Part shown: one piece after another, positions 18,485 through 64,000 of the stretch
How positions within the stretch are numbered: position 1 is the stretch's first letter
Layout: each line of letters starts with the position of its first letter
Assembly (NCBI GenBank): GCA_016287865.1
Contig: JAEEXP010000002.1
Coordinates: 7,859 to 71,858 of the forward strand
Source: Bacillales bacterium
Lineage (GTDB): Bacteria > Bacillota_I > Bacilli_A > Izemoplasmatales > UBA1188
Length of the DNA stretch: 64,000 nucleotides
Reading direction: 5' to 3'
Made by a program: the position numbers and the translations under genes
Notes under the pieces: model-generated
The model's database searches: none
The model's input: the letters and a program-made list of their open reading frames with translations, nothing else
Told to the model about the DNA's origin: nothing

Positions 18485-18498
18485 TGGAGGATATATAA

Positions 18499-38151: not shown

Positions 38152-39300
38152 TTAATTTCCATCCTTTTTATATACGATTTTACCTTCTTTAAATGTCTCT
38201 AGTACATGTAGTGAATTATCTAATAATACAAGGTCTGCGAGTAGGCCTTCTTTAATGGCTCCTCTATCAGTTAATCCTAATGACTTAGATTGATTAAAAC
38301 TACTAATTTTAGCCAAATCCATTAAATTGATATGGCACAATTCTTCCATATTTCGGAGGCCCTTATCCATAGATAGTACTGATCCAGCTAAAGGTCCTGT
38401 TTTTAGGTATAATGCATTACCTTTATTTACTACATCCATGCCTTCCATAACGAACTCTTTTTCTTTAGTATTTTTAGGAGATAAAGAGTCTGTGATAATC
38501 ATGAATCTATTTGGACCAACTATTTTATAATAAGTTTCAAGAACGTCTTTTTCAACATGCACAAAGTCACATATTAGTTCTGAATATAGTGTATCAAAAT
38601 ACATTCCAGCCACAACCATTCCAGGACGCTTATGGCTATATGGACTCATCGCATTATGAACGTGAGTTAGATTAGTGAGTCCATGCTTAATAGCTTCTTC
38701 AATATCGTTGAATGTCGCATCGCTATGTCCTGCAGATACTACTATATTATTTCTTCTTAGAAGTTTAATAGCTTCTTTAGTGTTAGTTGAAGCTTCAGGT
38801 GCGATAGTAATGTATCTTACATAACCTTCGCCAGTAGTAATAAACTCATTTAGTTCATCTAAATCAATTGGTCTAATATATTTTGGATTTTGAGCTCCAG
38901 AATATTTTTTATTAATATATGGACCTTCAAGATGAATTCCATAAAGAGATGGATTTATTTTTGCGGCCTCTTTAATATTCTTAATTGCCTCTAATATCTT
39001 TTCTTTAGTAGAAGTTAGGGTAGTAGCGAGGAATGTGGTGACGCCTTCAGCGTATAATGCATCACAAGCTATTTTAAAGTCTTCAACCTTAGCGTTCATA
39101 TAATCCACACCATTAGTACCATGAGTATGAAGATCAATAAAGCCAGGCATTAAGATTTGATTATGACAGTTAATAATTTCACTGTCACCTTCAGTAATAA
39201 CTTCTTCATAGATTTCATCGATATATTTATCAACGATTTTTACTGAACCATGTTCGATGATTCTATAATCTAATACAATTTTTACATCACTTAAAATCAT
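38152..39300 (-). CDS. nagA: N-acetylglucosamine-6-phosphate deacetylase
   Basis: PGFIDLHTHG, HLEGPY, GAQ, AGHSDA, THVHNAM, LAGS. Confidence 0.95.
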   Translation of the reverse strand: MILSDVKIVLDYRIIEHGSVKIVDKYIDEIYEEVITEGDSEIINCHNQILMPGFIDLHTHGTNGVDYMNAKVEDFKIACDALYAEGVTTFLATTLTSTKEKILEAIKNIKEAAKINPSLYGIHLEGPYINKKYSGAQNPKYIRPIDLDELNEFITTGEGYVRYITIAPEASTNTKEAIKLLRRNNIVVSAGHSDATFNDIEEAIKHGLTNLTHVHNAMSPYSHKRPGMVVAGMYFDTLYSELICDFVHVEKDVLETYYKIVGPNRFMIITDSLSPKNTKEKEFVMEGMDVVNKGNALYLKTGPLAGSVLSMDKGLRNMEELCHINLMDLAKISSFNQSKSLGLTDRGAIKEGLLADLVLLDNSLHVLETFKEGKIVYKKDGN

Positions 39301-40010
39301 AATGAATTAGCCTCCTCATCTACGTATATAGTCACATTATTGTGTTTATTTAATATACTAGCTGGTAAATCATTACTGATTATACCTTTCTTAAGTTCAC
39401 TAATTACTTTAGCTTTAGCCTTACCTGTTGCGATTAAGACAATTTCTCTTGCATTCATTATAGATTTAAGTCCCATAGTTATTGCATATCTTGGTACGTC
39501 ATCAATAGACGCAAAGAATCTTGAATTATCTTTAATAGTTGATTCCTTTAAAGCTTCTATATGAGTTAGTGAATCAAAAGAAGCGCCAGGTTCATTGAAT
39601 GCAATATGACCATCAGTACCAATACCTAATACTTGAATATCAATTCCTCCAGCTTCTTTAATCATCTTATCGTAATATAAAGGGTCTTCATCTTTAATCA
39701 GTCCATTTGGGACATATGTATTATTTAAATCAATATCTATATGACTAAATAGATTATGATTCATAAAATATCTATAGCTTTGGTCATTCAATTCATCAAG
39801 ACCGATATATTCATCGAGGTTAAATGTTTTAACATTTTTAAAACTTACTTCACCTTCCTTATATCTCTTAATTAATTCCTCATATAAAGGAAGAGGAGTA
39901 GAACCAGTCGCAAGACCTAGGACAGGTTTTTCTTTGGTTTTAATTAATGAAACAATTCTATCTGCGATATCTTTTGCGATATCGTCTTTATTTAATACAA
40001 CGTATTTCAT
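39297..40010 (-). CDS. nagB: Glucosamine-6-phosphate deaminase
   Basis: LGLATGSTP, TFNLDEY, LGIG.DGHIAFNEPG, AITMG. Confidence 0.96.
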   Translation of the reverse strand: MKYVVLNKDDIAKDIADRIVSLIKTKEKPVLGLATGSTPLPLYEELIKRYKEGEVSFKNVKTFNLDEYIGLDELNDQSYRYFMNHNLFSHIDIDLNNTYVPNGLIKDEDPLYYDKMIKEAGGIDIQVLGIGTDGHIAFNEPGASFDSLTHIEALKESTIKDNSRFFASIDDVPRYAITMGLKSIMNAREIVLIATGKAKAKVISELKKGIISNDLPASILNKHNNVTIYVDEEANSL

Positions 40011-42532
40011 TATCTATTACCTCCTATGAATGTGATAACTATAGTATTTTTATCTTTTAAATTATAATCATCAATAAATACTTTTCCATTATCAAGAGCT
40101 AAAGGTAAGCCGTTGAATGTAACTGATTCATTTTTACCTTCTTTAAGTGTTAGGTTAATTAATTTCCCTTTTACAATTACACTTAAAGATGCACTCTTAA
40201 ATGGTATATGAGATAAAGGTCTAATAGTAATGCCTGATAGATTTGGAGTAAATCCAAATACATCAAATACCATCATTTTAATTAATACATTAGCTGAACC
40301 AGTAAACCAGTCATTCATTGATTCACCATCAATACCTAAATCTTGGTTGTATCCATATGAGTTAGACATAATAGAAGGAGTGGTTGAGATGTATCTATGA
40401 GTTATTGGAAGAACCTTATATAATTCATTGAATGCATAATCAGGTTCATTCATTCTAAATAAACTCCAAATACCAAATAAAGCTCCATGAACATATGTAG
40501 CTGCGTTTTCTGCGGTACCTTTTGGAAGATTTACAATTCTTCCTACGCCTTTAGTTCCTCTTTTAAAATATGGTTCAAATGTCTTAAATCCATATTTAGA
40601 TGAAAGTCTTAAATAAGCACCTAGAATATGATCTCTCATTTCAGGTTTAACATTAATCATTCCGCTTAATACAAAGAATGCATTAACGGTAAGTGAATCA
40701 CGAGATTCACCGTCAGGGTCATTAAAGCTTCCAACTTTATAACTTCTATTATCTCCCCAACCATGAAGAATTCGAAGTTGGTCTTCATTAGAATCTATAG
40801 CGTTTTTAAGTATTCCTTTTTCAATTGTTTTTCTAACTTTATTATATTTATTAATTAGCTTTTTGTCATTATTAAACTTGCCTATTATTTGAACTACTTG
40901 ATCTAAGTTTTCATATAGTTGAAGTGTAGTCATTACTGATACACCATTTCCAAACTCTTTCTTAGGGTCACTAGTAACGCCAAGACCATCTAGTGCGTCA
41001 TTCCAGTCACCATATAAAGCTTTAACACAAGAAGTAGTTTTATCAATATTATTTACTAAATAATCGGTAATTTTAATAAGATGCATATATACACTATCTT
41101 TAAGATCTGTATATTCAACTTTATTTCTTCCAACTATTTTAAAATAACCACAAGTCTCTTTAAGAATTGAATAATCACCAGTAAATGATAGATATCTATA
41201 AAGAGCATTAATTACCCAAACACCTTGATCAATAAAGGCACGAGTATCCATTTGAGGAATCTCTTTATCTCTTGGGATTGAATATTGTCTTGGAAGACGA
41301 CCTGATGGGTCTGTGAAGTTTAATATTTCAAGTATCTTACTTCTAGCCTCGTCTGGTTTAAACATTAAACAAGCTTCAATCTGTTGAGCAACATCTCTTA
41401 CTCCGAGTAAAGATACACCACTATTTTTAGCTAGTGCCGCAAATTCAACTTGACCTTCAACGCTTCTTAAAAACTTAGTTAAAAGTTTTGCGTTAATATA
41501 GTTTTTACCATCATCAAAAGTCATTTTTAGTGATGGTTCTTTGAATGTCTTTTTAAGTGATTCAAGTTGATTATCAGCATATCCAGTTAAGTCTCTATTA
41601 ATAAGTGATAATGCTTCATCTTTATTAAATCTTAAACTAATTATGTAGTCTATTGATTCATCTTTAGAGCCTGATAGAGTAAATCCATAGATATCGCCTA
41701 AAATAGCGCTATCTGTGAATTGAGTAACTTTTCTTTCCCAACCAAATTTACCAACTTCTAAAGTGGTTGCGTTATATATACCTAAAGTAGTAGAACCAGT
41801 GTATTCACTCTTAGATGTAGTATGTGATTCAGACTTAATTTTATTAATGTTTAATACTCTATTTACTACTGCGAAATTATATAAAGATAAATTTCTATCA
41901 ATATCCTCTACACTTTCAAATAATGCACCATCTTCAGTAAGAGATGCTTTTCTAAACCACTTAGTTTCAAAACATTCTTGTGGTGCATGCATAAGAATGA
42001 AGTTAAGATAAGTAGAAAAGTAAATATCTTTTTTAGCTCTGCCTGTATTAATTGCGATGACTGAGAAGATTGGTTCTTTCTTTTCGCTCATAAATACTCT
42101 TAATACAAATACTATTTTTTCAACAATAGTGAAATAATATGCGGCTTCTCTTTTAAATACTGTGAATCTTTCATATTCATCATGAGGACGTTTAGATACT
42201 TCAGTTAATGATATTACTTTAAATGTATTATCTTCATTTCTAATTCCAGCGAAGAATCCGGTATAAGGCTCTTTTCCTTCACCTGTCTCAGGAATGAAAT
42301 GGAAAGAAGATTCATTAATGGAGAAATAACCATTTGCGTTTGCCCAAATGGTTAGTCCATCTTTTGAATATGGATATCTTGTATTTCCAAATTCTCTTGA
42401 TTCTTGAAGAATGATATTATCATCAAGAATAAAACAATTTGAAGCTACTTTAGATTCTTCAATTTTGTCTTTGTTACTTCTAAATTCTTGTACGAGTTTA
42501 AGAAGATTTAATGCTTCATCTTTAAAACTCAT
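40010..42532 (-). CDS. GH94-like glycoside phosphorylase (candidate beta-1,3-N-acetylglucosaminide phosphorylase)
   Basis: GVRD..Q, YGDWNDALD catalytic loop, GTAENAATYVH, WFTGSA; no signal peptide; translationally coupled to nagB-nagA. Confidence 0.8.
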   Translation of the reverse strand: MSFKDEALNLLKLVQEFRSNKDKIEESKVASNCFILDDNIILQESREFGNTRYPYSKDGLTIWANANGYFSINESSFHFIPETGEGKEPYTGFFAGIRNEDNTFKVISLTEVSKRPHDEYERFTVFKREAAYYFTIVEKIVFVLRVFMSEKKEPIFSVIAINTGRAKKDIYFSTYLNFILMHAPQECFETKWFRKASLTEDGALFESVEDIDRNLSLYNFAVVNRVLNINKIKSESHTTSKSEYTGSTTLGIYNATTLEVGKFGWERKVTQFTDSAILGDIYGFTLSGSKDESIDYIISLRFNKDEALSLINRDLTGYADNQLESLKKTFKEPSLKMTFDDGKNYINAKLLTKFLRSVEGQVEFAALAKNSGVSLLGVRDVAQQIEACLMFKPDEARSKILEILNFTDPSGRLPRQYSIPRDKEIPQMDTRAFIDQGVWVINALYRYLSFTGDYSILKETCGYFKIVGRNKVEYTDLKDSVYMHLIKITDYLVNNIDKTTSCVKALYGDWNDALDGLGVTSDPKKEFGNGVSVMTTLQLYENLDQVVQIIGKFNNDKKLINKYNKVRKTIEKGILKNAIDSNEDQLRILHGWGDNRSYKVGSFNDPDGESRDSLTVNAFFVLSGMINVKPEMRDHILGAYLRLSSKYGFKTFEPYFKRGTKGVGRIVNLPKGTAENAATYVHGALFGIWSLFRMNEPDYAFNELYKVLPITHRYISTTPSIMSNSYGYNQDLGIDGESMNDWFTGSANVLIKMMVFDVFGFTPNLSGITIRPLSHIPFKSASLSVIVKGKLINLTLKEGKNESVTFNGLPLALDNGKVFIDDYNLKDKNTIVITFIGGNR

Positions 42533-42536
42533 TTTA

Positions 42537-43967
42537 TTATAAACCTGCCTGTTGTTTCTTAGAATCCCATTGTGACTTAGCTGCTTGAGCTATATCACTA
42601 AATGCTTTATCAAGTGATGTTCCTTTTAACATGTTTTCATATGGACGGAGTCCACCAGTAAACCAAATATCAATTAATCCAGATAAATACATAAACTTAG
42701 TTGTCTTATCGTCGCCATCATTTAGTTTAGGATAATTAGTAAAGGCTTTTGTATATTGACTTCTGATGTTTAGAAGATTCTTTGTAAATGAGTTAGTTGC
42801 ATCACTATCTTGATAGTTGCAGTCATAAGCAAGAAGACCATTGGCTTCCTTTAAGAATGTCTTACAACCAAAATCACTAACGATTAACTTGATTAACGCT
42901 TTAGCTTCAACTTGATGAGTTGATGTAGCTGGAATTGCAAAGTATTGATCTTCACCAATTGTATATAGAATGTTTTCTTCAACAGCATTTGGAGCTGTAG
43001 GAGTCTTCATTAATGCGAGTTCAAATTCTTCACTATTAATTTCATAACCTAAGATTTCATTATAAATCCAGTCAGAGTTAAACATCATAGCAGCTTCGCC
43101 TCTTGCGAACTTTCTTTGTGCATCGTGGTTATCAAGACCAGAACAATTCTCAAGAACGTAATCAGTATTTCCAATTAATGCTTGCCACATAGAAGTGGCT
43201 TCTTTAAGTTTTGCATATGTAGAATTTTGTGATGAATCAAAGTTAGAAGCAGAAGAGTAGTTTAAGAATTCTTTGATATTAGCTTCGCCAGCAAGTTGAG
43301 CCCACCAAGTATATACAGCATAATCGAAGTAGTCAGTGTTTTGACCAGTATATACAAATGGAGCAACAGTATAAGATTGGTTTTCTACTGGTAATGCTTC
43401 ATTAACGATTGTTTCACATAAATCTAATAATTCTTGATAAGTTGTAGGAACTCTCCAACCATTGTTTTCAAACATTTTCTTATTATAGAAGATTCCACCT
43501 GTTGCTTTAATCCAAGGAAGTCTATATGTATGAAGTTTTCCTTGTGAATCTGGGTAATAGATACTATTTCTATATTCTTGTGATACTTTATCTTTTAACT
43601 TAACTCCATCAACTAAATCTTCCATGATGTCATCAAGTTCAGCAAATTTACCTTGAGCTGCATAAGTCATCCAGTCAACGCCAACAGAAATATATAAGTC
43701 ATCATCATTCTTTTTAGAATTTATATTTTTATTAATAACTTGATCCTCATTAGCAGTAGCTTCTAAGTCCACTTTAATAGTAGGATTATCTAATTCAAAT
43801 TTTTCAATAATTTTATTCATCCATGTAATACCATAACCTCTATTTAATACATGAACTTTAATGTGTGTTTTACCATCAACATTTGTCTTTTTACAGCCAA
43901 TAAGAACAAACGCAAACAAAAGAAGTGCAATAAAACTAAAACACATCTTAAAAATATTTTTTCTCAT
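42537..43967 (-). CDS. Carbohydrate ABC transporter substrate-binding lipoprotein
   Basis: Lipobox LIGC; GIFYNKKMFENNGWRVPTTYQEL, FARGEAAMM. Confidence 0.88.
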   Translation of the reverse strand: MRKNIFKMCFSFIALLLFAFVLIGCKKTNVDGKTHIKVHVLNRGYGITWMNKIIEKFELDNPTIKVDLEATANEDQVINKNINSKKNDDDLYISVGVDWMTYAAQGKFAELDDIMEDLVDGVKLKDKVSQEYRNSIYYPDSQGKLHTYRLPWIKATGGIFYNKKMFENNGWRVPTTYQELLDLCETIVNEALPVENQSYTVAPFVYTGQNTDYFDYAVYTWWAQLAGEANIKEFLNYSSASNFDSSQNSTYAKLKEATSMWQALIGNTDYVLENCSGLDNHDAQRKFARGEAAMMFNSDWIYNEILGYEINSEEFELALMKTPTAPNAVEENILYTIGEDQYFAIPATSTHQVEAKALIKLIVSDFGCKTFLKEANGLLAYDCNYQDSDATNSFTKNLLNIRSQYTKAFTNYPKLNDGDDKTTKFMYLSGLIDIWFTGGLRPYENMLKGTSLDKAFSDIAQAAKSQWDSKKQQAGL

Positions 43968-44178
43968 AAAATTCTCCTATTTACCTATTTTTAGATATTT
44001 TTAACAAATTTAAAAAACTACTTTAATACTACTATATATCAAAGATATTGTCAATAGAAATGAATATAAAAAAAGATTAACTAATTAAAAATACCTATGT
44101 TTTTTAAGTTAATTAAATAATATGTTGAATTAAGCCATTTTATATGTTAAAATTTTAGTAGATTGAGGACTTGTTTAT

Positions 44179-45765
44179 ATGAATAAACTTTGGAAAAAAC
44201 CAATTTTATTTCTATTTTTAGGCATTTTTTTGCTACTTATAGTAGGCTGTTCAAAGAAAAGTACAATTAATGTTGACAGTAGAAATAAATACATGAATGA
44301 TTACTATAATAGATTATCTTCGCATAAAAAGAGCGATTCTCCTTTACTATATGAGGGAATTGAATTAGATTTAGATAATCTATTCTTTGACGACTTTATG
44401 GACGGAGTCAATAAAGATAATTGGTATATTGCTAATCAAGCATGGGGTACTGGAGGTAACGGTGGTGTTATCAAAGAGAATGTTGGATATACTGATGATG
44501 GAATCTTAGTCCTTAAAGGCAATGGAAAATATTATACAGAAGGAAAGGTAAAAGGAGTTGGTTCATATAAGGATGGATCACTTACTGGAGCTGCCTTAAT
44601 TTCAAAGTTCACAACAAGACCTGGTAGATATCAAATTAAGATGAAAGTATTACCTAGACTAGGTGCGTGTACTGCCTTCTGGGTTTATTCATATGATCAA
44701 TCAAATGGAAATAACCATGAAATAGATATAGAGCTTCCAGGTGGAGCTAATTCTACACATGTTATTTCATTTGAAAATGTATTAAATACTAACTACATTA
44801 CAGTTCAAATGAGAGAATCACAAGATACAAAGTTAACTGAACTTGAAGGAATGGATGAAAACTTTGTAGCTTTAAATGACGGAAACTGGCATACCTTTGG
44901 ATTTGATTGGTATACTGACCCTGAACTTGTAGTTTATTACATTGATGGTGTAGTAACCGCAGTATCAAATGTGTTTGTACCATTTGCGGATACTCGTCTT
45001 TGGCTTGGTTTATGGTTCCCTAATACATCGGGATTTGTAGGAGAAGCACTCTTTGAATCAGATGCAATGTATGTAGATTGGGTTGAGTATATTCCATTTA
45101 AGAATCAACCATGTGACACTCTTGAAACTACATTTGGAAGAGACCAAGTCGCAGCTGATGATGAATATCCTACTACTCCAATTTCAATTGAAACACCTAA
45201 CAAAGTATCTAATGCAACATTTGAATACGCAAAAACTCATAGTGATTATGAAAATTATGGTTGGGACTTCAATAAGAGAAACTTAACTAGTGATGAAACT
45301 GCGTATTTAAAGAATAAATATAAAGAAGACTATCTAAGTAATAATCCGGACGCAACTGATGAAGAGATTAATGATTATATAAATGAAAAGTTAAAAGAAC
45401 TAAGAAAAACGACATCTTTAAATAATTTCACAAGAATCCTTTCAAATTCAGGAATGAATGATTCTTATGGAATAGAAGTTAAAGATATAGGAAGAGTGAG
45501 ACAAGTAATAGATTCTATCTATGATGGATATAATATTGATTTTAGTTTCTACGCAAAAGGAAAAGGAAAAGTAACTATTCAATTCCAAAATAATATAGAT
45601 TCTAAGATTAGTGAAATTGTATTCGACATTGATGAATTAGATTATAAGAATTTTAAATATCAAGGTATAGCTCCAGAAGGAACTAAGAAAATCATGATTA
45701 TGGTCGATACAACACTTAATAATGTTGTTTACGCTGATGACTTCAGTATGTATATCAATAGGTGA
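44179..45765 (+). CDS. GH16 family glycoside hydrolase lipoprotein with C-terminal CBM-like domain
   Basis: Lipobox IVGC; FFDDF, TAFW, NHEIDIE catalytic motif, WHTFGFDW, YYIDG, VDWVEY. Confidence 0.88.
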   Translation: MNKLWKKPILFLFLGIFLLLIVGCSKKSTINVDSRNKYMNDYYNRLSSHKKSDSPLLYEGIELDLDNLFFDDFMDGVNKDNWYIANQAWGTGGNGGVIKENVGYTDDGILVLKGNGKYYTEGKVKGVGSYKDGSLTGAALISKFTTRPGRYQIKMKVLPRLGACTAFWVYSYDQSNGNNHEIDIELPGGANSTHVISFENVLNTNYITVQMRESQDTKLTELEGMDENFVALNDGNWHTFGFDWYTDPELVVYYIDGVVTAVSNVFVPFADTRLWLGLWFPNTSGFVGEALFESDAMYVDWVEYIPFKNQPCDTLETTFGRDQVAADDEYPTTPISIETPNKVSNATFEYAKTHSDYENYGWDFNKRNLTSDETAYLKNKYKEDYLSNNPDATDEEINDYINEKLKELRKTTSLNNFTRILSNSGMNDSYGIEVKDIGRVRQVIDSIYDGYNIDFSFYAKGKGKVTIQFQNNIDSKISEIVFDIDELDYKNFKYQGIAPEGTKKIMIMVDTTLNNVVYADDFSMYINR

Positions 45766-45769
45766 TTAT

Positions 45770-46714: not shown

Positions 46715-46725
46715 GAGGTTATATT

Positions 46726-51086: not shown

Positions 51087-51087
51087 A

Positions 51088-52218: not shown

Positions 52219-52238
52219 ATATTACAAGGAGAATAGTT

Positions 52239-55200: not shown

Positions 55201-56987
55201 ATGAAGAAATTACAAATATTTTTGGAGAAGAAGTTACATTCACTGGAGAACTTGATGGAAGAGGACACAAATTATTAAATCTTAATTTATCAGGAACAAA
55301 TTGTGCCATTTTTAGAAATAATAGCGGAAAAATTATTAACCTTGAATTATATGGAAAAACATATAGTGAAGGTTATGGAGCAATGCTTGTTTTGGATAAT
55401 AATGGTGAAATAAGAAATATATACTTTGAAGGTGAAAGTAATGTAACAAATGGTGGCCCACTTGTTGCAAACAATAATCGCGGTGGTATTGTCCAAAATG
55501 CAGTATTCTATGGAAACATTATTAATGGATGTGGAGTTGCTAAATATAATGAAGGTAATGTTTCAAATGTAGTAATCGTTTACGATAAAATACCTGGAGA
55601 GGATGTCTTTGCTTTTGTTGAAAATCAACCTGGTAATAGTAATTTTGTTGAAAGGGTTTCAATACTTGAAGTAGAAGATAATATTGCGGAAGTTAGCGAA
55701 GATCTTTGGAATAAGGTGTTAAGCAAATCGCGCATAGTTCTAAGAGGAATTCGTCAATATAATCAAGGTGATTATTCACAGGCTGATCCTCATCTTGACT
55801 TAAATTATATGATTGATAATGACAATGATACATTTACTTGGCTTCCTGGTTCATCAATGGATTTATTTGCCGTCATTCAAATTGACTTAGGCCAAGCCTA
55901 TGATGCTAAAAATATTTTCATATCTATGGATGTGAATGATTATATTAAGAAATACGAAATACTCTATGCTGAACACGTTAATAACTGGATTTCAGTAGGA
56001 GAATTTGAAACAAATGAAGTAATAGTAGAAGTAAACACAAAAGTTAGATATATCAGAATTTATAAAACACTCCTAGAAATAGGAAATCTTAATTATGATG
56101 TTCGAATTCATTCTATTACTCTTAATAAAGAAACAACTAAATCATTAAGTTATGGAAATATAACTAAATATGAAGAAGGAGAAGTTGAAGGTATAGCTAA
56201 TGGTCATACAGATATTAGTTATGCAATAGATGATGACCCATCAACATTCGTCTGGTTTAAAGCTCCAGTACCTAGTGATGAAAACAAACCATATGTTGTG
56301 CTTGATCTTGGTTCGATTAAAGAAGTTACTTCTGTAGTAATTGAAATGGCTCATGCTGACCATATGGCTGATTACTTCCATAATTCTTCACTCTATTATT
56401 CAAAAGATGGAAAAGCCTGGACAAAAGTTAAAGATTCAACAGATAATATTGTTTATCATTATTTTGATTCATTTATTAAAGCGAGATACTTTAAGATTGA
56501 ATATACTGGCACAGAATCTAATGGTGGTGATTTAATCATTAGAGAATTTAAAGCTAATCTTGACTTATTACTTGTAGGCTCTAAACCATATAACACTGTA
56601 AGAGATACTGAACCATTAACATCTATCCTTTATGCGACAGATAATGATACTTCAACAAGCTTAGATCTTGATCTTGGTTCACTTTCTTTAAGCGAAAGAA
56701 CAATCATCATAGATTTACATGAACTAAAAGATATAAGTGTTATTGATCTTAAGACTATCGCACCTTGGGGTAATGAAATAGATCATGGATTCTATGTAGA
56801 AGAATCGGCTGATGGTACTACATTTGAAGACGTATCTGGTTTTATTCCAGCTTATGAATCAGGAATATATCATCTTGATCTTGGTGAAACAATTAATACA
56901 AGATTTATCAAGATTATATTTGATACAGAACATTCTTTAGGATTAACTGAAGTTAGTGTATATAACGCAACTCTTAGTAATGATTAG
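52239..56987 (+). CDS. Giant surface lipoprotein: FN3-like, bacterial Ig-like, two beta-helix modules and C-terminal F5/8 (CBM32-like) domains
   Basis: Lipobox LTAC, T/K/S linker, DLTGL...YSDG Ig repeats, NDIDF/FTGKFDG modules, AIDDDPSTF...LDLG...YSKDGKAW. Confidence 0.75.
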   Translation: MKKKSLLLSLLLIVFLGLTLTACKTKTKSNITTTKKNPSSSLTESTKNTSSKDTTKSSSNTTKQTEKPTEKPTETTKVPAKKLQAPFLSLERSIVTITGSEDALKFKVYINDQVVEEELAQRAYAINITTPGTYLIYVIALGDNITTLDSDKSNTITYVVEEPPIETIELRAPSIVLNELLGKVTWEAVSNATAYQLYINDEIAGTPMTQTEFDLSNIFIEGTYKIKVKALGDGAFYTDSNFSNEVTYVLQNVTYDSLVVTGTLKKSTYIANVDTEIDLTGLVFKAVYSDGEPAVLDYMDLTVSEIDFTTAGEKTVTISYSEMGETHSTEITITVVIQKAVSSIEISVAPTAKTEYRVGDAALKLAGITITVKYNTGTQDTNIAVTKDMIDDSSYALDTIGLYHVKVTYADKSNTFDIRVVEGDPTLDSLKVEGTLTKNTFNVNHVLELNDLSGISLSAIYSDNSEVPLTLSLEMVEYDFTELGERDITISYQTVSTKITVTIIDYVTGIQVVSKSGNTYKYDVSSTNGNFLIDNTIYKTWAVGTPTQLAFTEWEDLSFTSLTPGHREITFTFGEFETKQTYDLTYIITQASEWNMLNTYPDGYFELGNDIDFKSDTSISKMIGLAPMVFNSSAEDYYFDGEGNGEASAQIGVAFTGKFDGKGYKLLNFKYRPESTHDVDAYGVGLFGFIGADAIVTNFTLKGADIKGWQRFSFIAGMLEGTLSDVLIDEDCSIKSDGGSWASMSVVAFKRGAGIMNNVICLQIEATHNSGTKEVTLTGQSYGDDKIVDSFVDSKYVTEIVSVQNVNIEVVQNQTIDLSTIILNVKYINGTTGTVNPTSYTGLDAGLLGTQTITFSYTSSHVTDPLTIDVTITVISGQKTLKITAKDESAIVYIPYNNGWPIDNIDWSEYVTATVGGSSYQVSELNAYPELSTIEQGVISVTFSGSAMTTDKINLFVALEVDSKEAFMAISGKPYTRFVLTQDIDFEDEEITNIFGEEVTFTGELDGRGHKLLNLNLSGTNCAIFRNNSGKIINLELYGKTYSEGYGAMLVLDNNGEIRNIYFEGESNVTNGGPLVANNNRGGIVQNAVFYGNIINGCGVAKYNEGNVSNVVIVYDKIPGEDVFAFVENQPGNSNFVERVSILEVEDNIAEVSEDLWNKVLSKSRIVLRGIRQYNQGDYSQADPHLDLNYMIDNDNDTFTWLPGSSMDLFAVIQIDLGQAYDAKNIFISMDVNDYIKKYEILYAEHVNNWISVGEFETNEVIVEVNTKVRYIRIYKTLLEIGNLNYDVRIHSITLNKETTKSLSYGNITKYEEGEVEGIANGHTDISYAIDDDPSTFVWFKAPVPSDENKPYVVLDLGSIKEVTSVVIEMAHADHMADYFHNSSLYYSKDGKAWTKVKDSTDNIVYHYFDSFIKARYFKIEYTGTESNGGDLIIREFKANLDLLLVGSKPYNTVRDTEPLTSILYATDNDTSTSLDLDLGSLSLSERTIIIDLHELKDISVIDLKTIAPWGNEIDHGFYVEESADGTTFEDVSGFIPAYESGIYHLDLGETINTRFIKIIFDTEHSLGLTEVSVYNATLSND

Positions 56988-57062
56988 TGAGATTAAACTC
57001 ACACTAAATGGTACAAACAATATAATATATGAAAAAGAAAATATAAATAAAAGGAGAAAAAA

Positions 57063-60000
57063 ATGAAGAAAGGATTAAAACAATTTGCATTTATAATCTT
57101 TTCGTTAGTTGTGGCTCTCACAATGGTAGGTTGTAAGAGAAAGACTACTAAAACAGAGCCGCAAAAAACAAATACTCCACAAAGTAGTACAACTACTACT
57201 AAGAAAGGAGGAGAGAGTCAAACACAGACTCAGCCAACTCAAAAGGTTTTAAAACAATTAAATTTAAAATCTGAACCATCAAAGGCATCTATCTTTATGG
57301 ATGAACTTGATACTTCTGATCTTCTTCAAGGCGCAGTGTTTGAAGCTCAATATTCTGATGGTTCAAAGAAAACACTTAATCTTAGTGAATTAAGTGTGAC
57401 TATGCCAGAAGATGGAGTTACTCTTGGCGATAATGAAATTACTGTTTCATATGAAGAAGCCGGAGTTAAGAAGTCTTTCGTTCTTAGTATCTTCTTAAAG
57501 CTTAAAGGAAAAGAAGATGTTGAAGAATACTTAGTCTTTGCGTTTGATCAAAAAGGCGATGAAACTTTATGTCCAGTCCCATCACTACCTGAAGGAACTA
57601 AACTATATGATATGCTTGGAGAAGAAATCGTTCCAGTTGATGGAAATATTGCATATAGTGGTGCTGGTGAATTATTCCTTAAAGCTGTTACAGGCGATGA
57701 TGAAACATACGTTCTTGTTAAAGTAGGTCATTTAATCAAGACTGAAGAAGACTTTGCTAAAATCAACGAAGATTTAGATGGATATTACATTTTACATAAT
57801 GATATTATATTTGATAATTTTAAGTTATCTCCAGTCATTGGCCAAATTGCTATGATTGAAGTAGAAGGTAGCGAGGATAAATTACCAGACTTTAATGATT
57901 CATCTAACAAACCATTTAATGGAACATTTGATGGTAATGGTTTTTCTTTAATTCAATATAATTTATATGTTCCTGAAGGTGTTGCGTATCATAGTAAAGA
58001 GGCTTGGGGACTTGGTATCTTCAACTATGTAGGCGAAGAAGGAATAGTTAAAGACTTATCTTTAAAATATTGCTCAGTTGACGGCGGACAAAACACTTCA
58101 TTACTTTGTGGCGTTAATAAAGGCTATATTGAGAATATCGTAATCGAAGATTCTAACTATTTATATTCAAATTTTAATAGAGGCGCAGCTATTTCTGCAT
58201 TTAATTATGGTGTTGTTCAAAATATCATTTGTAGATTAACTAAGTTTTATGCAAAAAATGAACATACATTAGATTTACCTATTACATTATTTGAAAATAA
58301 ACCTCAAGAAATCACAAACGGCTTTATTGATAGACTTAATCATACTGAAGATTTACCTAATGGATTCAAATATTATGAAGGATTAGGTATGGCTCTTGTT
58401 AACCCATATTTCTTTGCTATAGTTAATGAATATGGATCTGAATTAAAGTTAGGCGAGAGATATGAGATTAAGATTGTTGCAAACGAGGGTATTAATCCAG
58501 TATTTGTTGTGCTTCTTAATGATGAAACAGATAGTGACTTAACTGTTGTAAAAGATGAAACTGATGGTAAGTATTACCTATCATTTGAACCTGGAGTATT
58601 AAAAGCAGATGATATGGTAACTATTCTTGCTGCTTATCCATCACTTGATTTTGAACATGGTGAAATAATAACTGTAGATATAAAAGATATTCTTGTTAAA
58701 CCTGCAGATTTAGTAAGTGTTGAACTTAAATATCCTATTAATGTAATTGAAGGATTGGATATTGATATTACAGGCGCTAAGCTTGTATTTACATATTCTG
58801 ATTCAACAACAAAAGAATTAGATGTATTACATCAAGTTGGATTCGATAAGACAAAAGGTGTTGGAGCTCAAACTATTAAATTATTCTATGGTGAAGCTCA
58901 AGATTTATTTGTAGAATGTGAAGTTAATATTGTAGCAAAAGAAGCTACTGGAATTGAAGTTAGAAAAACTGAAGCAGCTAAAGCTTCTTATCAAAAAGAT
59001 GAAACATTATCTCTTGAAGGTTATACAGTAGTTGTTAAATATAACAATAATACTGAATCAGAACCAATTGCTTTAACATCTCAAATGATTGATCAAACAT
59101 CGTATGATATGTCAGAGGCTGGAGAATATAATGTTAAGGTAACATATGAAGGTTTTGATGCAACATTCAAAATTGTAGTTACAGAAGTTAGTCTTACAGA
59201 TATTAATATCACTGGTAACTTACTAAAAGATACATATAAATATGGTGATACATTAACTGCTGCTGATTTTACATCAGTAACAGTTGAAGCAATTTATTCT
59301 GATAACTCAGTTGTACCTTTATCATTTACTGATTATTCATTATCATATGATTTTAATAAAGTAGGCTCTGCAGATGTTAGAATTGCTTATAATGGTATTT
59401 CAAAAAATGTGTTCACAGTTACCGTAGAAGACTATGAAAAGAGCCTTTCAGTTGAATTTAATGAACTTGGTGAAAATGATAAATTTATCTATGATATCGC
59501 AAATAAAACTGATAACTTTAAAGACTTCTTTAAATCAGTTAAAGTTATCATGGCATCTGGCGCTTTAAATGAATTAACTGGTTCTGACTTAGATTTAGTA
59601 AAGCCAGTAGGATTAAAATCTGGTGCTTGCCAACTTGGATTCAAACTTGTAGATTCTGTAGCTCATGAAACAATAGTAGAAACTGAAAATAAGGTTGATG
59701 TAGAAGTATGGTATCAAGTTACAACTCAAGCACAATTCTTCGCAATTGCTGATAATATGGCAGGTTATTACTTATTAGGTAATGATATTGCATTTGAAGG
59801 TTGGAGACTTCCAATTGGTGTGGTACCATTAAGAGCAAAATCGGGTGATAATTATCCGTTTGATGGCGAAGGCTATGGTTCTGCTGAAGGACAAATTGGT
59901 ATTCCATTTACTGGTAAATTTGATGGACAAAACCACACATTATCTAATGTAAAGATTAATGTTGATGGATATGCTGCTTATGGTGTTGCAATATTTGGTT

Positions 60001-61739
60001 GGATTGGTGAAACCGGTATTGTTCAAAATTTAAAGATAACTAATTCAATTGTTCAAGGTTGGCAAAATCTTGGATTCCTTGTTGGTAGACTTGATGGAAC
60101 AATTAGAAATGTTACAATCTATAATTCTGCGATTGAATCTCGTGGTGGAACATGGGCTAAATTAAGCATCGTTGCATTCAAAGGCGGATCAGGTGTTGTT
60201 GATTATGTTGAAGCAATTAATGTTGCTGGTTCTTGCATTGTAGCCGAAGTTAAAACTCCGCTAGAAATTTTGGGTATAGTAAGAGATGAATCAGGCTATA
60301 ATTATGGCGCAGAAAAAGTAACAAACACATATTGTGGTCCAGCTTATCCAGTTGAAATTAAATCAATTGACACAAATAATATTCAAGTTTCACAAGGTGA
60401 AACACTTGATCTATCTACAGTCTTTATTACAGTTAAATTAAGTGATGGAACAGAGATTCAAACTAATCCAACTTCAATTGAAGGAGAACTAGATACATCG
60501 ACTCTTGGTGAAAAGAATGTTTCATTTAAATATGAAGCCAACGGACATGACGCGTCGTTAGTTGGAACAGTTACGGTAATTGAACATCTTGATACAATGG
60601 TTGCTCAACTTAAAGAAGGAAAAACTGGTGTAGTTATTCCTTATAACAATGGTTGGAATTTAGCTAATGTTACTAACTGGTTAGATATTATAACTATTGA
60701 GATTGAAGGTGAAACAGTAACTGATATGACAGGCATTACTGCAGTTGCAGATAAATTGTCTGGAGAATCAGTTAAAGTTTCCTTTAATAAAGAAGGATGC
60801 ACATCTTCATCGGTAACAATGGTAATTGATTTAGAAATAAAAGACTATGAATCATTTATGGCAATCAACGATAATCCTGATGGAAGATTTATAGTAACAA
60901 AAGATGTTTTCTTCTCATCTACTCAAAAAACAACAAATCAATCTTATATTACTGCACCTTTCACTGGATATTTAGATGGTCAAGGACATTATTTATATGA
61001 ATTCAATATTGATACAGCATTATCTAACGCTGGTTTATTTATGGGTACTGATAATAATAGAATGACTGGAACAATTAAGAATCTTAGACTAATTGGAAAA
61101 GTTAAATCAACTGCTAGTTATGTTGGTGCTATTTGTATGAGAAATGATGGTGTAATTGAAAATTGTTATATTAACGTCATTACTGAAGGTGATACAAATG
61201 TTGGCGGAATAGTAAATAATAACTATGGAACAATTAGTGGCTGTTTAGTTTTAGGAAATGTAATTGGAAATGAAAAAGTTGGTGGCATTGTTCGTAAAAC
61301 ACAAGCCGGTGGAACAACTATAAATTGTGTAGCTATAAATTATGGAAATACTGGTGCACACGCAAGTGAACCAGCTGGCACAGAAACAAACATTACTGCA
61401 GTACCAGTTATCGGAGTAATTGATTCTAATACCTTTGGTATAGCTGACGATTTATATAATGAATTAATTAAACTTACATTTAAAGAATGCAAAGTATTGT
61501 GGAAAGAAAATTCTAATATAATTACTGAATGTGCTGTTGGCCACGAATTTAATAAAGATGAAATTGAATTACATGTTTATCGCAATAATGAAGATCAACC
61601 ATATGATTTTGAGATTACAAATATAGAAGTTGATACTTCGGTTGCTGGTGAAAATATTCCTCTTGTTCTTACAATTGAAGAAGGATATCAACAAACATTT
61701 GATCTTACTATTTATATAACAGTAAAAGCAACTGAATAA
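57063..61739 (+). CDS. Giant surface lipoprotein, paralogue of the preceding gene (Ig-like repeats plus three beta-helix modules)
   Basis: Lipobox MVGC; shares FDGEG.G...QIG..FTGKFDG, GWQ, GG.WA, IPYNNGW with 52239..56987. Confidence 0.75.
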   Translation: MKKGLKQFAFIIFSLVVALTMVGCKRKTTKTEPQKTNTPQSSTTTTKKGGESQTQTQPTQKVLKQLNLKSEPSKASIFMDELDTSDLLQGAVFEAQYSDGSKKTLNLSELSVTMPEDGVTLGDNEITVSYEEAGVKKSFVLSIFLKLKGKEDVEEYLVFAFDQKGDETLCPVPSLPEGTKLYDMLGEEIVPVDGNIAYSGAGELFLKAVTGDDETYVLVKVGHLIKTEEDFAKINEDLDGYYILHNDIIFDNFKLSPVIGQIAMIEVEGSEDKLPDFNDSSNKPFNGTFDGNGFSLIQYNLYVPEGVAYHSKEAWGLGIFNYVGEEGIVKDLSLKYCSVDGGQNTSLLCGVNKGYIENIVIEDSNYLYSNFNRGAAISAFNYGVVQNIICRLTKFYAKNEHTLDLPITLFENKPQEITNGFIDRLNHTEDLPNGFKYYEGLGMALVNPYFFAIVNEYGSELKLGERYEIKIVANEGINPVFVVLLNDETDSDLTVVKDETDGKYYLSFEPGVLKADDMVTILAAYPSLDFEHGEIITVDIKDILVKPADLVSVELKYPINVIEGLDIDITGAKLVFTYSDSTTKELDVLHQVGFDKTKGVGAQTIKLFYGEAQDLFVECEVNIVAKEATGIEVRKTEAAKASYQKDETLSLEGYTVVVKYNNNTESEPIALTSQMIDQTSYDMSEAGEYNVKVTYEGFDATFKIVVTEVSLTDINITGNLLKDTYKYGDTLTAADFTSVTVEAIYSDNSVVPLSFTDYSLSYDFNKVGSADVRIAYNGISKNVFTVTVEDYEKSLSVEFNELGENDKFIYDIANKTDNFKDFFKSVKVIMASGALNELTGSDLDLVKPVGLKSGACQLGFKLVDSVAHETIVETENKVDVEVWYQVTTQAQFFAIADNMAGYYLLGNDIAFEGWRLPIGVVPLRAKSGDNYPFDGEGYGSAEGQIGIPFTGKFDGQNHTLSNVKINVDGYAAYGVAIFGWIGETGIVQNLKITNSIVQGWQNLGFLVGRLDGTIRNVTIYNSAIESRGGTWAKLSIVAFKGGSGVVDYVEAINVAGSCIVAEVKTPLEILGIVRDESGYNYGAEKVTNTYCGPAYPVEIKSIDTNNIQVSQGETLDLSTVFITVKLSDGTEIQTNPTSIEGELDTSTLGEKNVSFKYEANGHDASLVGTVTVIEHLDTMVAQLKEGKTGVVIPYNNGWNLANVTNWLDIITIEIEGETVTDMTGITAVADKLSGESVKVSFNKEGCTSSSVTMVIDLEIKDYESFMAINDNPDGRFIVTKDVFFSSTQKTTNQSYITAPFTGYLDGQGHYLYEFNIDTALSNAGLFMGTDNNRMTGTIKNLRLIGKVKSTASYVGAICMRNDGVIENCYINVITEGDTNVGGIVNNNYGTISGCLVLGNVIGNEKVGGIVRKTQAGGTTINCVAINYGNTGAHASEPAGTETNITAVPVIGVIDSNTFGIADDLYNELIKLTFKECKVLWKENSNIITECAVGHEFNKDEIELHVYRNNEDQPYDFEITNIEVDTSVAGENIPLVLTIEEGYQQTFDLTIYITVKATE

Positions 61740-61755
61740 TTAAACATTAAATAAG

Positions 61756-61788
61756 TCTATGTGTGGGGCTTTAAACCCCACACATAGA
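61756..61788 (+). other. Strong intra-operon stem-loop without U-tract
   Basis: TCTATGTGTGGGG/CCCCACACATAGA 13-bp stem immediately before the GGAGG RBS. Confidence 0.65.
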
Positions 61789-61799
61789 TGGAGGTTTAT

Positions 61800-63377
61800 A
61801 TGAAAAAGAATCTATTTATAAAAGTAATACTTAGTCTAGTATTATGTTTATTTATCGGAATAAATGTTAGAGGTAAAGCAAAAGCTTCACCTTTTCCTGA
61901 TCCAAATAAAACTCCAAGAATGGTTACTTTAACAATTTATAATGATAATGGTATACATATGGGTTTTAATTGGAATACCACTCACTATACTTCAAGTGAT
62001 GTTGAAGTAGTTAGAGATGATGATTCAAATGCGTTTACGTCATCATCTGTGATTAGAAGTAGTGGTACGTTTAGAGTATCTCCTGCAAGCGAAGCTGATG
62101 GTATTATTCATAGTGCTACATCAGGTGAACTTGAATATAACACTAAATATAAATATAGAGTGGGTGATTCTGAACTTAATATATTTAGTGAAGTAGGTAC
62201 TTTCACAACTGGTTCAAACACATATAAACCTTTTAATATCGTTCATGTTTCTGACCCACAAGCTTCAAGCGAAAACTATTATAATGTCTATGGTACTTTA
62301 TTAAGTGAAGCTATCAAAACTAATCCTAGTTTTATTATTAATACTGGTGATATGGTTGAATCTAACTGGATAGGTCACATTCCAAATCTTGATCAATGGG
62401 AATGGGTACTCACAGATAGATTTAATATTATGAAGGATTATCCTTTAATGGCGGTCGCAGGAAACCATGAAGAGGCATCTTATGATTTTAGTTCAAGATT
62501 TAATGTGAATAATCCAGAATCTTGTGATGGAAGAAGTGGACTTTATTATTCATATGATTATAATGGCGTACACTTCTTAGCGATTAATACTAATGATACA
62601 TTAGGAAGAGAATCAGCTACTGATGCTAGAGGATTATCAAGTACTCAACTTGAATGGATTGAAAATGATTTAAAGAATAATCAAAACGCTAAATGGATTA
62701 TTGTTTATATGCATAAAGGAATCTTTGATAGCGGAGGTCACTCAGTAAACGCAGAAGGGAAAGATTATGATATAGAGAAAATTAGAGAAGAACTCGCTCC
62801 ACTATTCTCTAAATATAATGTTTCACTAGTTCTTCAAGGTCATGACCATCTTTATAGTAAGACATATCCAGTAAACGCAAAAATAGTAAACAATAACCTT
62901 GAAGCTATAGGAAATAAAGATGCAATAAAAATATCTTATTCATATAATGATAAGAACTATCAAGTATATAATGGTTATGAAGGAACTATTTATTTAAATA
63001 GTGGTTCATCAACTGGTTCAAAATACTATTCACCAATTGAAGGAATGTATAGTAAAGATATAATTGAAGATACATCTAATCCATCAATGGTAATGTATTC
63101 AAATATTATATTTACTGAAGATGCACTACTTATTGATACTTATACTATGGATACTGAAGGTAAAACTACTCTTTATAAATCGTTTGGAATGCTAAATGAA
63201 AAAAGAGATATTCCAAACCCGGTTGATCCAGCAGACCCAGTAGACCCAGTTGATCCAACTAAACCTAAAAATAATATGGTATTATTAATACTTTCAATTG
63301 TAGGTCCAAGTATTTTAGTTCTAGGTGGCGCTATAGTATTTGTTTTAATTAGAAATAATAAAAGGAGAAATAAATAA
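61800..63377 (+). CDS. Surface-anchored purple acid phosphatase-family metallophosphoesterase
   Basis: Signal peptide, FN3-like YKYRVGD, HVSDPQ, TGD, GNHE, GHDH; PVD-repeat linker, C-terminal TM and basic tail. Confidence 0.88.
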   Translation: MKKNLFIKVILSLVLCLFIGINVRGKAKASPFPDPNKTPRMVTLTIYNDNGIHMGFNWNTTHYTSSDVEVVRDDDSNAFTSSSVIRSSGTFRVSPASEADGIIHSATSGELEYNTKYKYRVGDSELNIFSEVGTFTTGSNTYKPFNIVHVSDPQASSENYYNVYGTLLSEAIKTNPSFIINTGDMVESNWIGHIPNLDQWEWVLTDRFNIMKDYPLMAVAGNHEEASYDFSSRFNVNNPESCDGRSGLYYSYDYNGVHFLAINTNDTLGRESATDARGLSSTQLEWIENDLKNNQNAKWIIVYMHKGIFDSGGHSVNAEGKDYDIEKIREELAPLFSKYNVSLVLQGHDHLYSKTYPVNAKIVNNNLEAIGNKDAIKISYSYNDKNYQVYNGYEGTIYLNSGSSTGSKYYSPIEGMYSKDIIEDTSNPSMVMYSNIIFTEDALLIDTYTMDTEGKTTLYKSFGMLNEKRDIPNPVDPADPVDPVDPTKPKNNMVLLILSIVGPSILVLGGAIVFVLIRNNKRRNK

Positions 63378-64000
63378 TGATTAAATTTGGTACTGGTGGT
63401 TTTAGAGGCATTATCGGTGATGATTTCACAAAAGAAAACGTACAAAGGATCGCTCAAGGTTTAGCGAATATTTCTAAAGAAGAAAAGAACCATAAAGCTA
63501 TTCTAATCGGATATGATTATCGTTTTATGTCTGATGTTGCGGCTAAGTGGATCGCAGAAGTACTTGCAGCTAATAAGATTAAAGTACTTTTATATACTGA
63601 GGCTATGCCTACTCCAGCTATTTTATTCTCAACTGTAGATAGAGGTCTTAAATATGGAGTAATGATTACCGCAAGTCATAATCCATACTTTTATAATGGT
63701 GTAAAACTCTTCGCAGATAATCAAGACGCTGATGAAGTCTTCACTAAGAGAATGGAAGACATCATCAACAAAGATTTAGAAGTTAAAACTATGAGATATG
63801 AAGAAGCATTAAACCTTGGTTTAATCAAACTCTTTACTGATAAGAGAAAATATCTTAAGAAAATAGAATCATTCGTTACTTTAAATAATAATAGAAAAGA
63901 TATTAGAATTCTTTATGACAATCTTCACGGTGTTGGCGCTAAATGTATCATGCCAATATATAAAAAGATGGGAGTAAGTCTAAAAACCCTCAATATTGAG
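63377..64000 (+). CDS. Alpha-D-phosphohexomutase (phosphoglucomutase/phosphomannomutase family), 3'-truncated by the window
   Basis: ATG overlaps the previous stop; MIKFGTGGFRG, GYD.RFMS, PTP, ITASHNP..YNGVK. Confidence 0.92.
   Translation, partial: MIKFGTGGFRGIIGDDFTKENVQRIAQGLANISKEEKNHKAILIGYDYRFMSDVAAKWIAEVLAANKIKVLLYTEAMPTPAILFSTVDRGLKYGVMITASHNPYFYNGVKLFADNQDADEVFTKRMEDIINKDLEVKTMRYEEALNLGLIKLFTDKRKYLKKIESFVTLNNNRKDIRILYDNLHGVGAKCIMPIYKKMGVSLKTLNIE

Follow-up and report, generated by a model that had tools for sequence, protein, structure and literature searches.

The chb operon of Vibrio encodes an ATP-binding cassette (ABC) importer, a chitobiose phosphorylase of glycoside hydrolase (GH) family 94 and a mutase for N-acetylglucosamine 1-phosphate (GlcNAc-1-P); the linkage is beta-1,4, and extracellular GH18 chitinases belong to the system. 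Another GH94 enzyme is AchP of Acholeplasma laidlawii, the phosphorylase of poly-beta-1,3-GlcNAc (acholetin), a polymer that was made enzymatically in 2022 (Macdonald et al., PMC9052796). Whether acholetin occurs in nature, and what role its phosphorylase has, are matters of hypothesis in that report, and the main text treats AchP as an enzyme that keeps up a polymer of the cell itself (PMC9052796). By word search, 'operon' and 'gene cluster' are absent from this main text, and an importer or GH16 context is unmentioned in it, supplements aside (PMC9052796). Neither a locus nor a hydrolase for the polymer is described in the acholetin literature searched (including PMC9052796, PMC9052804, PMC12814180 and PMC11221537, supplements aside), and nothing was added by literature searches for an 'acholetinase' or for GH94 together with GlcNAc-1-P or GH16. 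Here we describe a candidate for such a locus in a stretch of 64,000 nucleotides (the window; contig C85, positions 7859-71858) from a Bacillales bacterium of the Izemoplasmatales, the assembly of which comprises 1.33 Mb in 90 contigs with ~30% G+C and is 96% complete and 6.7% contaminated. We consider it fairly probable that the locus serves the utilisation of an extracellular polymer or oligomer with beta-1,3-linked GlcNAc, that is, an acholetin-like glycan. Its phosphorylase is a fresh member of a known family, and the locus and its candidate endo-enzyme are undescribed in the literature searched.

From position 38152 to the window end, the locus consists of two divergent, closely packed operons (Table 1). 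The minus-strand operon encodes a substrate-binding protein (SBP), GH94, NagB and NagA in this order, with a spacing of 4 bases followed by overlaps of 1 and 4 bases. The plus-strand operon encodes a GH16-like protein, two permeases, a 1165-residue protein, a ROK protein, proteins of 1582 and 1558 residues, a metallophosphoesterase and a phosphohexomutase, and its neighbours overlap by at most 71 bases or leave gaps no longer than 75 bases. An earlier annotation of this DNA (the original prediction) had proposed two divergent tight operons with these genes; all open reading frames (ORFs) lie at the positions given there, and Pfam and NCBIfam back each gene-family assignment in the locus. It had also called the locus complete at 26 kb. 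The boundaries stand, but the mutase crosses the window end by 768 bases, with the gene stop at window-equivalent position 64768, and the locus is ~26.6 kb long.

These genes can be arranged in a pathway from the cell surface to central metabolism. Surface lipoproteins with Ig-like, GLUG and F5/8 type C modules would hold the glycan, and the lipoprotein GH16-like enzyme, judging from its intact motif, fold and conserved linkage, would cut it to oligomers outside the cell. The SBP and the two permeases would import the oligomers with energy from an ATPase encoded elsewhere. The cytoplasmic GH94 enzyme, by its family membership and eight conserved AchP residues, is predicted to take GlcNAc off the non-reducing end with phosphate, which yields GlcNAc-1-P. 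A GlmM-like mutase would convert GlcNAc-1-P to GlcNAc-6-P, and NagA and NagB, both assigned to their families above curated cut-offs, would lead from there to fructose-6-phosphate. The ROK/NagC-like protein probably controls the divergent promoters. SBP-dependent ABC import, cytoplasmic GH94 phosphorolysis to GlcNAc-1-P, a phosphohexomutase, and then NagA and NagB are also the steps of the Vibrio chb system. The window locus differs from that system in that its GH94 is distant from the Vibrio enzyme ChbP (29.6 bits), in that it has a GH16-like endo-enzyme, and in that no GH18 match was found in the genome. It also resembles the polysaccharide utilisation loci of Gram-positive bacteria and Bacteroidota, in which glycan binders and an endo-glycanase on the surface are co-regulated with an importer for oligosaccharides, exo-degradation takes place in the cytoplasm, and the regulator is encoded locally. 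Unlike these, it has lipoproteins and an ABC importer without SusC/SusD, a phosphorolytic cytoplasmic step, and a polymer without an established natural source.

The GH94 catalytic (alpha/alpha)6 domain was recognised at residues 370-755 of the phosphorylase (PF17167, 103.4 bits; cut-off 27), and no N-terminal signal peptide was visible by eye. According to the main text of the AchP report, AchP has 842 residues with D513 as the catalytic residue; R416 and R432 bind the two acetamido groups (subsites -1 and +1), W511 and E674 bind 4-hydroxyls, and Y679, H681 and T743 hold the phosphate, and the enzyme favours GlcNAc-1-P with GlcNAc (PMC9052796). PDB sequence searches with the window GH94, the family profile and the L061 protein listed no AchP entry. 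AchP was compared by proxy, through two proteins of uncultured Acholeplasma sp. (loci L061 and L080) and their clade, which were equated with AchP by length, residue numbering and the Acholeplasma label; these two and P0121-P0124 are 842-residue proteins with 8/8 AchP residues at the exact published positions. The window GH94 aligned with the L061 protein over 846 columns (~830 residues) with 41% identity and 633 bits, and with the second proxy with 615 bits. Its R415, R431, W510, D512, E675, Y680, H682 and T744 align with R416, R432, W511, D513, E674, Y679, H681 and T743 of AchP, respectively, and the catalytic D512 lies within a GDWND sequence. R416 is conserved in all of 185 family sequences, R432 in 184, W511, D513, E674, Y679 and H681 in 185 each, and T743 in 182. 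The 185 sequences, 183 of 186 retrieved proteins plus two locus translations (P0002 with 509 residues, P0126 with 594 and P0101 with 1323 were dropped by length), were chosen by similarity to the query, and the invariance refers to the family as sampled. Because every contact residue is conserved, AchP-like chemistry is the best guess for the window GH94 as judged from its sequence.

The likeness to AchP thus covers the GH94 sub-family, the length (842 versus 840 residues) and the eight substrate and phosphate residues, among which are the catalytic Asp and both Arg that bind acetamido groups, and the proxy Acholeplasma proteins sit in the same locus type. The two differ in clade and in host, which here is a ruminant-gut bacterium with a small genome, and the activity in this bacterium is a prediction. 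In a FastTree phylogeny rooted on a cellobiose-phosphorylase-type paralogue from the same genome, the window GH94 belongs to a clade of 38 members (support 0.99) and the AchP-type proteins to a separate one of 6 (support 1.0); the smallest clade that holds both comprises 133 of the 186 tips. In terms of sequence, and as judged through the proxies, the window GH94 belongs to the AchP family without being an orthologue of the Acholeplasma clade. Many full-length relatives with 41-52% identity were found in the databases, mostly unnamed proteins from gut metagenomes and metagenome-assembled genomes (MAGs), and a scan of species-representative genomes found an AchP-family phosphorylase encoded in 503 stretches.

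It is very unlikely that the locus instead serves a beta-glucan (laminarin or lichenan) or chitin oligomers, with GH94 as a phosphorylase of laminaribiose, cellobiose or chitobiose. In favour of this, beta-glucans are the usual substrates of GH16 enzymes, lichenases are the nearest folds in this case, AchP is weakly active with glucose 1-phosphate according to the main text (PMC9052796), and the SBP is weakly like the GlcNAc/chitobiose-binding protein NgcE (91.6 bits, below the 399.65 cut-off). Against this, solved GH94 enzymes score low. In a single-sequence PDB search, the best match to the window GH94 was the GH94 domain of cyclic beta-1,2-glucan synthase (56.9 bits), followed by cellobiose phosphorylase (54.6 bits) and two chitobiose phosphorylase entries (48.5 and 29.6 bits, the latter being the Vibrio enzyme), and laminaribiose phosphorylase was not listed. 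A 22-sequence family profile gave at most 113 bits to solved GH94s and 26.8 bits to laminaribiose phosphorylase. The original prediction had named grouping with chitobiose or glucan phosphorylases as a refutation, and by these scores the GH94 does not appear to group with them: the single-sequence scores stop at 56.9 bits, against 633 bits to the AchP-type proxy. These low scores, together with both acetamido-binding arginines, speak against an identity as chitobiose, cellobiose or laminaribiose phosphorylase. Furthermore, nagA and nagB appear to be co-transcribed with the GH94 gene, and AchP leaves chitobiose uncut according to the main text (PMC9052796). A separate, canonical cellobiose phosphorylase is encoded elsewhere in the genome; it scores 1099 bits to the solved enzyme, is 19% identical to the window GH94, and carries H and G where the latter has the two arginines. 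This paralogue served as the outgroup, and kinship was judged from it and from bit scores against solved structures. GH18 had no match in the 96% complete genome, and the single GH20 match (C85:1948-2586) lies outside the window on the same contig, ~44 kb upstream of the locus, which fits the earlier view that this is not a chitin locus. A weak third match to the GH94 superfamily (30.8 bits) was also seen in a 949-residue frame (G000:C12:2714-2998).

The GH16-like protein is the candidate for the extracellular step. It is the sole GH16 match in the genome, weak but over threshold (PF00722, 42 bits; cut-off 22). Its E-x-D-x-E motif is intact (EIDIE at residues 181-185), and E181, D183 and E185 are invariant in 24 homologues. 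An AlphaFold (AF2) model with a mean pLDDT (per-residue confidence) of 87.6 and a pTM (predicted template modelling score) of 0.83 consists of a beta-jelly-roll (~60-310), a helical linker and, at the C-terminus, a beta-sandwich. Foldseek found Bacillus 1,3-1,4-beta-glucanases (lichenases) as the best matches, with template modelling (TM) scores of 0.84-0.85 on the target and 20-22% identity. The protein thus shares fold and motif with GH16 lichenases and laminarinases. A close kinship to the characterised enzymes was not found, with 22.9 bits (single sequence) and 62.3 bits (family profile) to the best solved sequence and 36.5 bits to the NCBIfam model BglS (cut-off 300), and it also differs from them in being tied to a GlcNAc-catabolic locus and not to glucan genes. 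These data indicate a divergent, secreted GH16 enzyme that is probably active. That it cleaves a GlcNAc polymer we infer only from its linkage to GH94 and the other partners in the locus.

The glucanase-like fold also bears on the main rival explanation, to which we give a clearly smaller chance. In this explanation, the substrate would be a heteroglycan or mixed-linkage glycan, such as a beta-1,3/1,4 polymer of GlcNAc analogous to lichenan, a polysaccharide of bacterial surfaces with GlcNAc-beta1,3-GlcNAc, or pieces of host O-glycans with GlcNAc linked beta1,3 to N-acetylgalactosamine (GalNAc), and GH94 would trim only terminal beta-1,3-GlcNAc. The closest solved relatives of the GH16-like protein being 1,3-1,4-beta-glucanases is consistent with it. 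AchP elongates chitobiose and chitotetraose and can also use GalNAc, although GalNAc gives a kcat/Km that is ~20 times lower than GlcNAc does and galactose is not used as an acceptor, as given in the main text (PMC9052796). E674, which contacts the equatorial 4-hydroxyl of the +1 GlcNAc (PMC9052796, main text), is invariant in the family, and this argues against such a substrate. The F5/8 type C domains on the 1582-residue lipoprotein, and near-identical DNA in animal gut metagenomes, are in its favour. So is the secreted phosphoesterase in the operon, which hints at a decorated polymer, but this gene occurs in only 7 of 80 related loci (3 of 37 with full flanks), and no catabolic genes for galactose, GalNAc or uronate were found in the window's locus.

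An acholetin-like substrate is preferred, and gene neighbourhoods in other genomes are consistent with it. We surveyed the 80 best genome loci found with GH94, among which the full 10-kb flanks were available in 37. A homologue of the GH16-like protein was present in 41 of the 80 loci (21 of the 37), and one of the mutase, usually directly upstream of GH94, also in 41 (40 in another count; 18 of the 37). The ROK protein had homologues in 35 loci (21 with full flanks), the 1165-residue protein, which sits after the permeases, in 33 (23), each permease in 33 (21 and 22), and the SBP in 25 (13). A MalK-type ATPase was found in 20 of the 80. The gene arrangement is more than chance, because the same set recurs around GH94 relatives in other genomes. 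Ten loci from Christensenellales-type MAGs (L001-L010), whose GH94 is closest to that of the window, show the same divergent layout. The Acholeplasma locus L061 has the order SBP, permease, permease, a 709-residue protein, ROK, double GH16, mutase and AchP-type phosphorylase; two tandem GH16-plus-sandwich modules are carried by an 817-residue lipoprotein (L061:6171-8624, plus strand). From this gene order, the AchP-type genes of the Acholeplasma MAGs therefore sit in an uptake-type locus. In one metagenomic protein of 1323 residues (P0101), a mutase (residues 1-450, 48% identity) is fused to an AchP-family GH94 (481-1277, 43% identity). The synteny survey that the original prediction had called for thus found the layout of capture, cleavage, import and phosphorolysis kept in other taxa, including Acholeplasma. 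This conserved locus suggests that a beta-1,3-GlcNAc polymer really does serve as food for bacteria in animal guts.

In a reciprocal scan of metagenome contigs from the GH16-like protein, 18 close full-length homologues were accompanied by both permeases in 18 cases, by the SBP and the 1165-residue protein in 16 each, by ROK in 13 and by the mutase in 7. The gene set was mostly missing near the 61 more distant GH16 matches. Six of the 80 GH94 loci carry a GH20C-type hexosaminidase instead, among them L046 (L046:3873-5504), which is without any of the window's other genes; this suggests a second context for the phosphorylase family. Separately, 11 of the 80 loci (e.g., L033:14409-15911) encode a BspA-type leucine-rich-repeat protein downstream of nagA.

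Several points weigh against utilisation of an acholetin-like glycan. No ABC ATPase and no GlcNAc kinase was found within the locus; to call the locus complete goes too far, and these activities would have to lie outside it. NagA homologues are present in only 18 of the 80 loci (9 of the 37 with full flanks) and NagB homologues in 17 (7 of the 37), and 19 of the 80 loci, including 10 of the 37, have none of the window's other genes. Only 5 of the 18 reciprocal loci have GH94 within the fetched flanks, and in 5 the mutase lies no further than ~1.5 kb from where the fetched stretch ends. The comparison with AchP went through proxies, no protein named after A. laidlawii was among the results of two sequence-database searches, and the window GH94 is only 41% identical to the Acholeplasma clade and placed in a separate clade of 38 members. 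The nearest solved relatives of the GH16-like protein are glucan-cleaving lichenases, and a GlcNAc substrate is unprecedented for this branch. Finally, the natural source of poly-beta-1,3-GlcNAc is not established. Sequence, predicted structures and comparative context support the acholetin-like interpretation as far as such data reach. They show gene content and order, family membership, the conserved AchP contact residues and the conserved gene linkage; the linkage cleaved, the substrate of the GH16-like enzyme, the specificity of the mutase, the role of the regulator, and the identity and source of the polymer are what we infer from them.

The biology of the host is relevant to one more explanation. 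Penicillin-binding transpeptidases had no match in the genome, which has only one Mur-ligase-domain match. Because of these two results at 96% completeness, the cell is probably wall-less, like Mollicutes. A wall-less cell may bear a surface glycan, and the locus might remodel or recycle such a polyhexosamine of the cell itself, as Macdonald et al. hypothesised for A. laidlawii AchP in the main text (PMC9052796). In the Acholeplasma locus L061, a polysaccharide-synthesis cluster starts ~3 kb downstream of the AchP-type gene, in line with this idea. We nevertheless hold it to be improbable. The architecture is that of nutrient uptake, with surface binders, a secreted endo-enzyme, an SBP importer and catabolism to fructose-6-phosphate, and no glycosyltransferase was found in or adjoining the window's locus. 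In addition, the distribution of the gene is a better fit to an accessory trait than to an envelope function. In an even sample of the class, an AchP-family gene was present in 4 of 399 genomes, this genome included, and two other species of the same genus (G129 and G271) had no AchP-family match at E <= 1e-50. Therefore, the locus is a patchy accessory trait that varies even within the genus.

The habitat was traced through metagenomes. In runs X3, X8, X17 and X6, which come from four studies and are labelled sheep, bovine, rumen and gut metagenome, contigs tile the stretch from GH94 to GH16 and are mostly 95-99% alike to it; the longer pieces of X3 differ from the window at 45 of 1314, 83 of 1988 and 56 of 2418 bases. 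These are four among the runs with shares of 0.24-0.39, and the two runs with the highest shares (0.66 and 0.57, from one study) may be the source sample. No RNA run was listed among the matches, which speaks neither for nor against expression. The likeness of these ruminant-gut contigs indicates that close relatives therefore live in ruminant guts.

Each of the three giant proteins, like the SBP and the GH16-like protein, starts, as read by eye, with a signal peptide of the lipoprotein type that ends in Cys. The importer parts in the locus, an SBP and two permeases, are of the CUT1 type. Three full-length MalK-type ATPases are encoded elsewhere in the genome, with 54-59% identity to a locus-linked one, and the importer presumably draws on an ATPase of this kind. 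The three giants are predicted surface glycan-binding or scaffold proteins. Pfam scans of the whole proteins and of 320-residue pieces found Ig-like, GLUG and F5/8 type C modules only (the last ~460 residues of the 1558-residue protein, from ~1100, were covered by the whole-protein scan), and two Atlas searches gave the same domain types. The AF2 model of the 1165-residue protein (pLDDT 78.2, pTM 0.50) shows Ig-like domains one after another, together with two beta-helix-like GLUG modules. Its Foldseek matches, all with low TM scores, were confined to adhesins, S-layer proteins and other Ig chains, and no enzyme fold was among them. Residues ~1250-1440 of the 1558-residue protein match homologues of the 1165-residue protein in the GLUG region. 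PDB sequence searches with the giants gave one Ig-domain match alone, on the 1558-residue protein, and no solved relative of the 1582-residue protein, the central part of which (560-1190) gave weak Atlas leads of at most 0.89. No catalytic domain was found in the giants by Pfam, PDB or Atlas searches, but large parts of the 1582- and 1558-residue proteins match no family and may hide one.

Among the catabolic enzymes, NagA and NagB both exceed the NCBIfam equivalog cut-offs. The nearest models to the mutase are those of GlmM, although it stays under the equivalog cut-offs of both (TIGR03990, archaeal-type, 273.6 versus 439; TIGR01455, 161.8 versus 447.55). Its TASHN, DSDSDR and GESSG motifs are intact; in alpha-D-phosphohexomutases these stand for the phosphoserine, the metal site and the sugar loop. 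A winged helix occupies residues 45-88 of the ROK protein, the best model of which is NagC (102.5 bits, below the 650 cut-off). It matches neither D-x-G-x-T/S nor C-x-C, presumably the ATP motif of ROK kinases and the zinc motif, respectively. Because of the winged-helix N-terminus and the missing D-x-G-x-T/S match, this protein looks like a regulator from its sequence and was not read as a sugar kinase. The region between the operons holds AT-rich imperfect inverted repeats and promoter-like hexamers on both strands (44054-44026, minus; 44125-44153, plus). The number of promoter-like sites there was not above that of shuffles (38 versus 45.9 +/- 7.3), and promoter, terminator and inverted-repeat scans of this region gave nothing that exceeded shuffles.

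The surroundings of the locus are of a different kind. The genes beyond the mutase on the contig are unrelated (Fur-like and arsenic-efflux-like). Upstream of nagA, the family-matching genes are housekeeping genes, among them glutathione peroxidase, GAPDH and Fe-only hydrogenase, and 9 of the 20 ORFs scanned there had no family match. At 16574-20274 (plus strand), a NuoF-like flavoprotein and the large subunit of an Fe-only hydrogenase are neighbours, and this pair points to a fermentative, hydrogen-producing metabolism. An ORF of 1186 residues (27248-30808, plus strand) had no Pfam match at E <= 1e-5. Another of 495 residues (34675-36162, plus strand) has a sole Pfam match, ribosomal L15/L27A at residues 421-489, and so has either a long unexplained N-terminal extension or a mis-called start.

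Table 1. Genes and intergenic region of the locus, in window coordinates.
Feature	Position	Strand	Length	Family matches and remarks
nagA, N-acetylglucosamine-6-phosphate deacetylase	38152..39300	-	382 aa	TIGR00221 301.5 bits (cut-off 225.65); Amidohydro_1; 4-base overlap with nagB
nagB, glucosamine-6-phosphate deaminase	39297..40010	-	237 aa	TIGR00502 269.1 bits (cut-off 236.9); Glucosamine_iso
AchP-family GH94 phosphorylase, cytoplasmic	40010..42532	-	840 aa	PF17167; predicted beta-1,3-N-acetylglucosaminide phosphorylase releasing GlcNAc-1-P
Lipoprotein SBP of CUT1-type ABC sugar importer	42537..43967	-	476 aa	SBP_bac_1, SBP_bac_8; lipobox
Divergent intergenic region	43968..44178	.	211 bases	between the operons; presumed shared control region
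Lipoprotein GH16-like endo-glycanase	44179..45765	+	528 aa	PF00722; C-terminal beta-sandwich; candidate endo-beta-1,3-N-acetylglucosaminidase
ABC permease 1	45722..46714	+	330 aa as listed	BPD_transp_1; true start may be later
ABC permease 2	46726..47589	+	287 aa	BPD_transp_1
Surface lipoprotein, Ig-like and GLUG beta-helix-like modules	47589..51086	+	1165 aa	GLUG only in Pfam; lipobox; predicted glycan-binding or scaffold protein
ROK-family regulator, NagC-like (predicted)	51016..52218	+	400 aa as listed	ROK and winged-helix helix-turn-helix; likely start ~51088
Surface lipoprotein	52239..56987	+	1582 aa	Big_3 x3, F5/8 type C x2 (carbohydrate-binding-like); lipobox
Surface lipoprotein	57063..61739	+	1558 aa	Big_3 x4; lipobox
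Secreted purple-acid-phosphatase-like metallophosphoesterase	61788..63377	+	529 aa	Metallophos, Pur_ac_phosph_N; hydrophobic N-terminus; accessory
GlmM-like alpha-D-phosphohexomutase	63377..64000, on to 64768	+	463 aa (whole gene, L084:236-1627)	PGM_PMM_I, II; predicted GlcNAc-1-P to GlcNAc-6-P

With a candidate endo-enzyme, a binding protein, a phosphorylase and a mutase, the locus makes the question of natural acholetin testable. A wider proposal, which we put forward tentatively and with more doubt than confidence, is that the GH16-like protein would be the first endo-beta-1,3-N-acetylglucosaminidase ('acholetinase') and the founder of a GH16 sub-family of its own. In that case acholetin, or else a poly-GlcNAc of mixed linkage, might be no mere laboratory product but widespread in nature, in animal guts and in anaerobic digesters. 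Uncultured Firmicutes, partly without a wall, would form a guild that forages on it with this conserved locus, and AchP would serve scavenging and not upkeep of the coat. If the GH16-like enzyme does cut acholetin, it would have a new GH16 specificity, provide a tool for making defined oligomers and serve as a probe for the polymer in gut contents. The biology of AchP would in that case be revised from self-maintenance to foraging.

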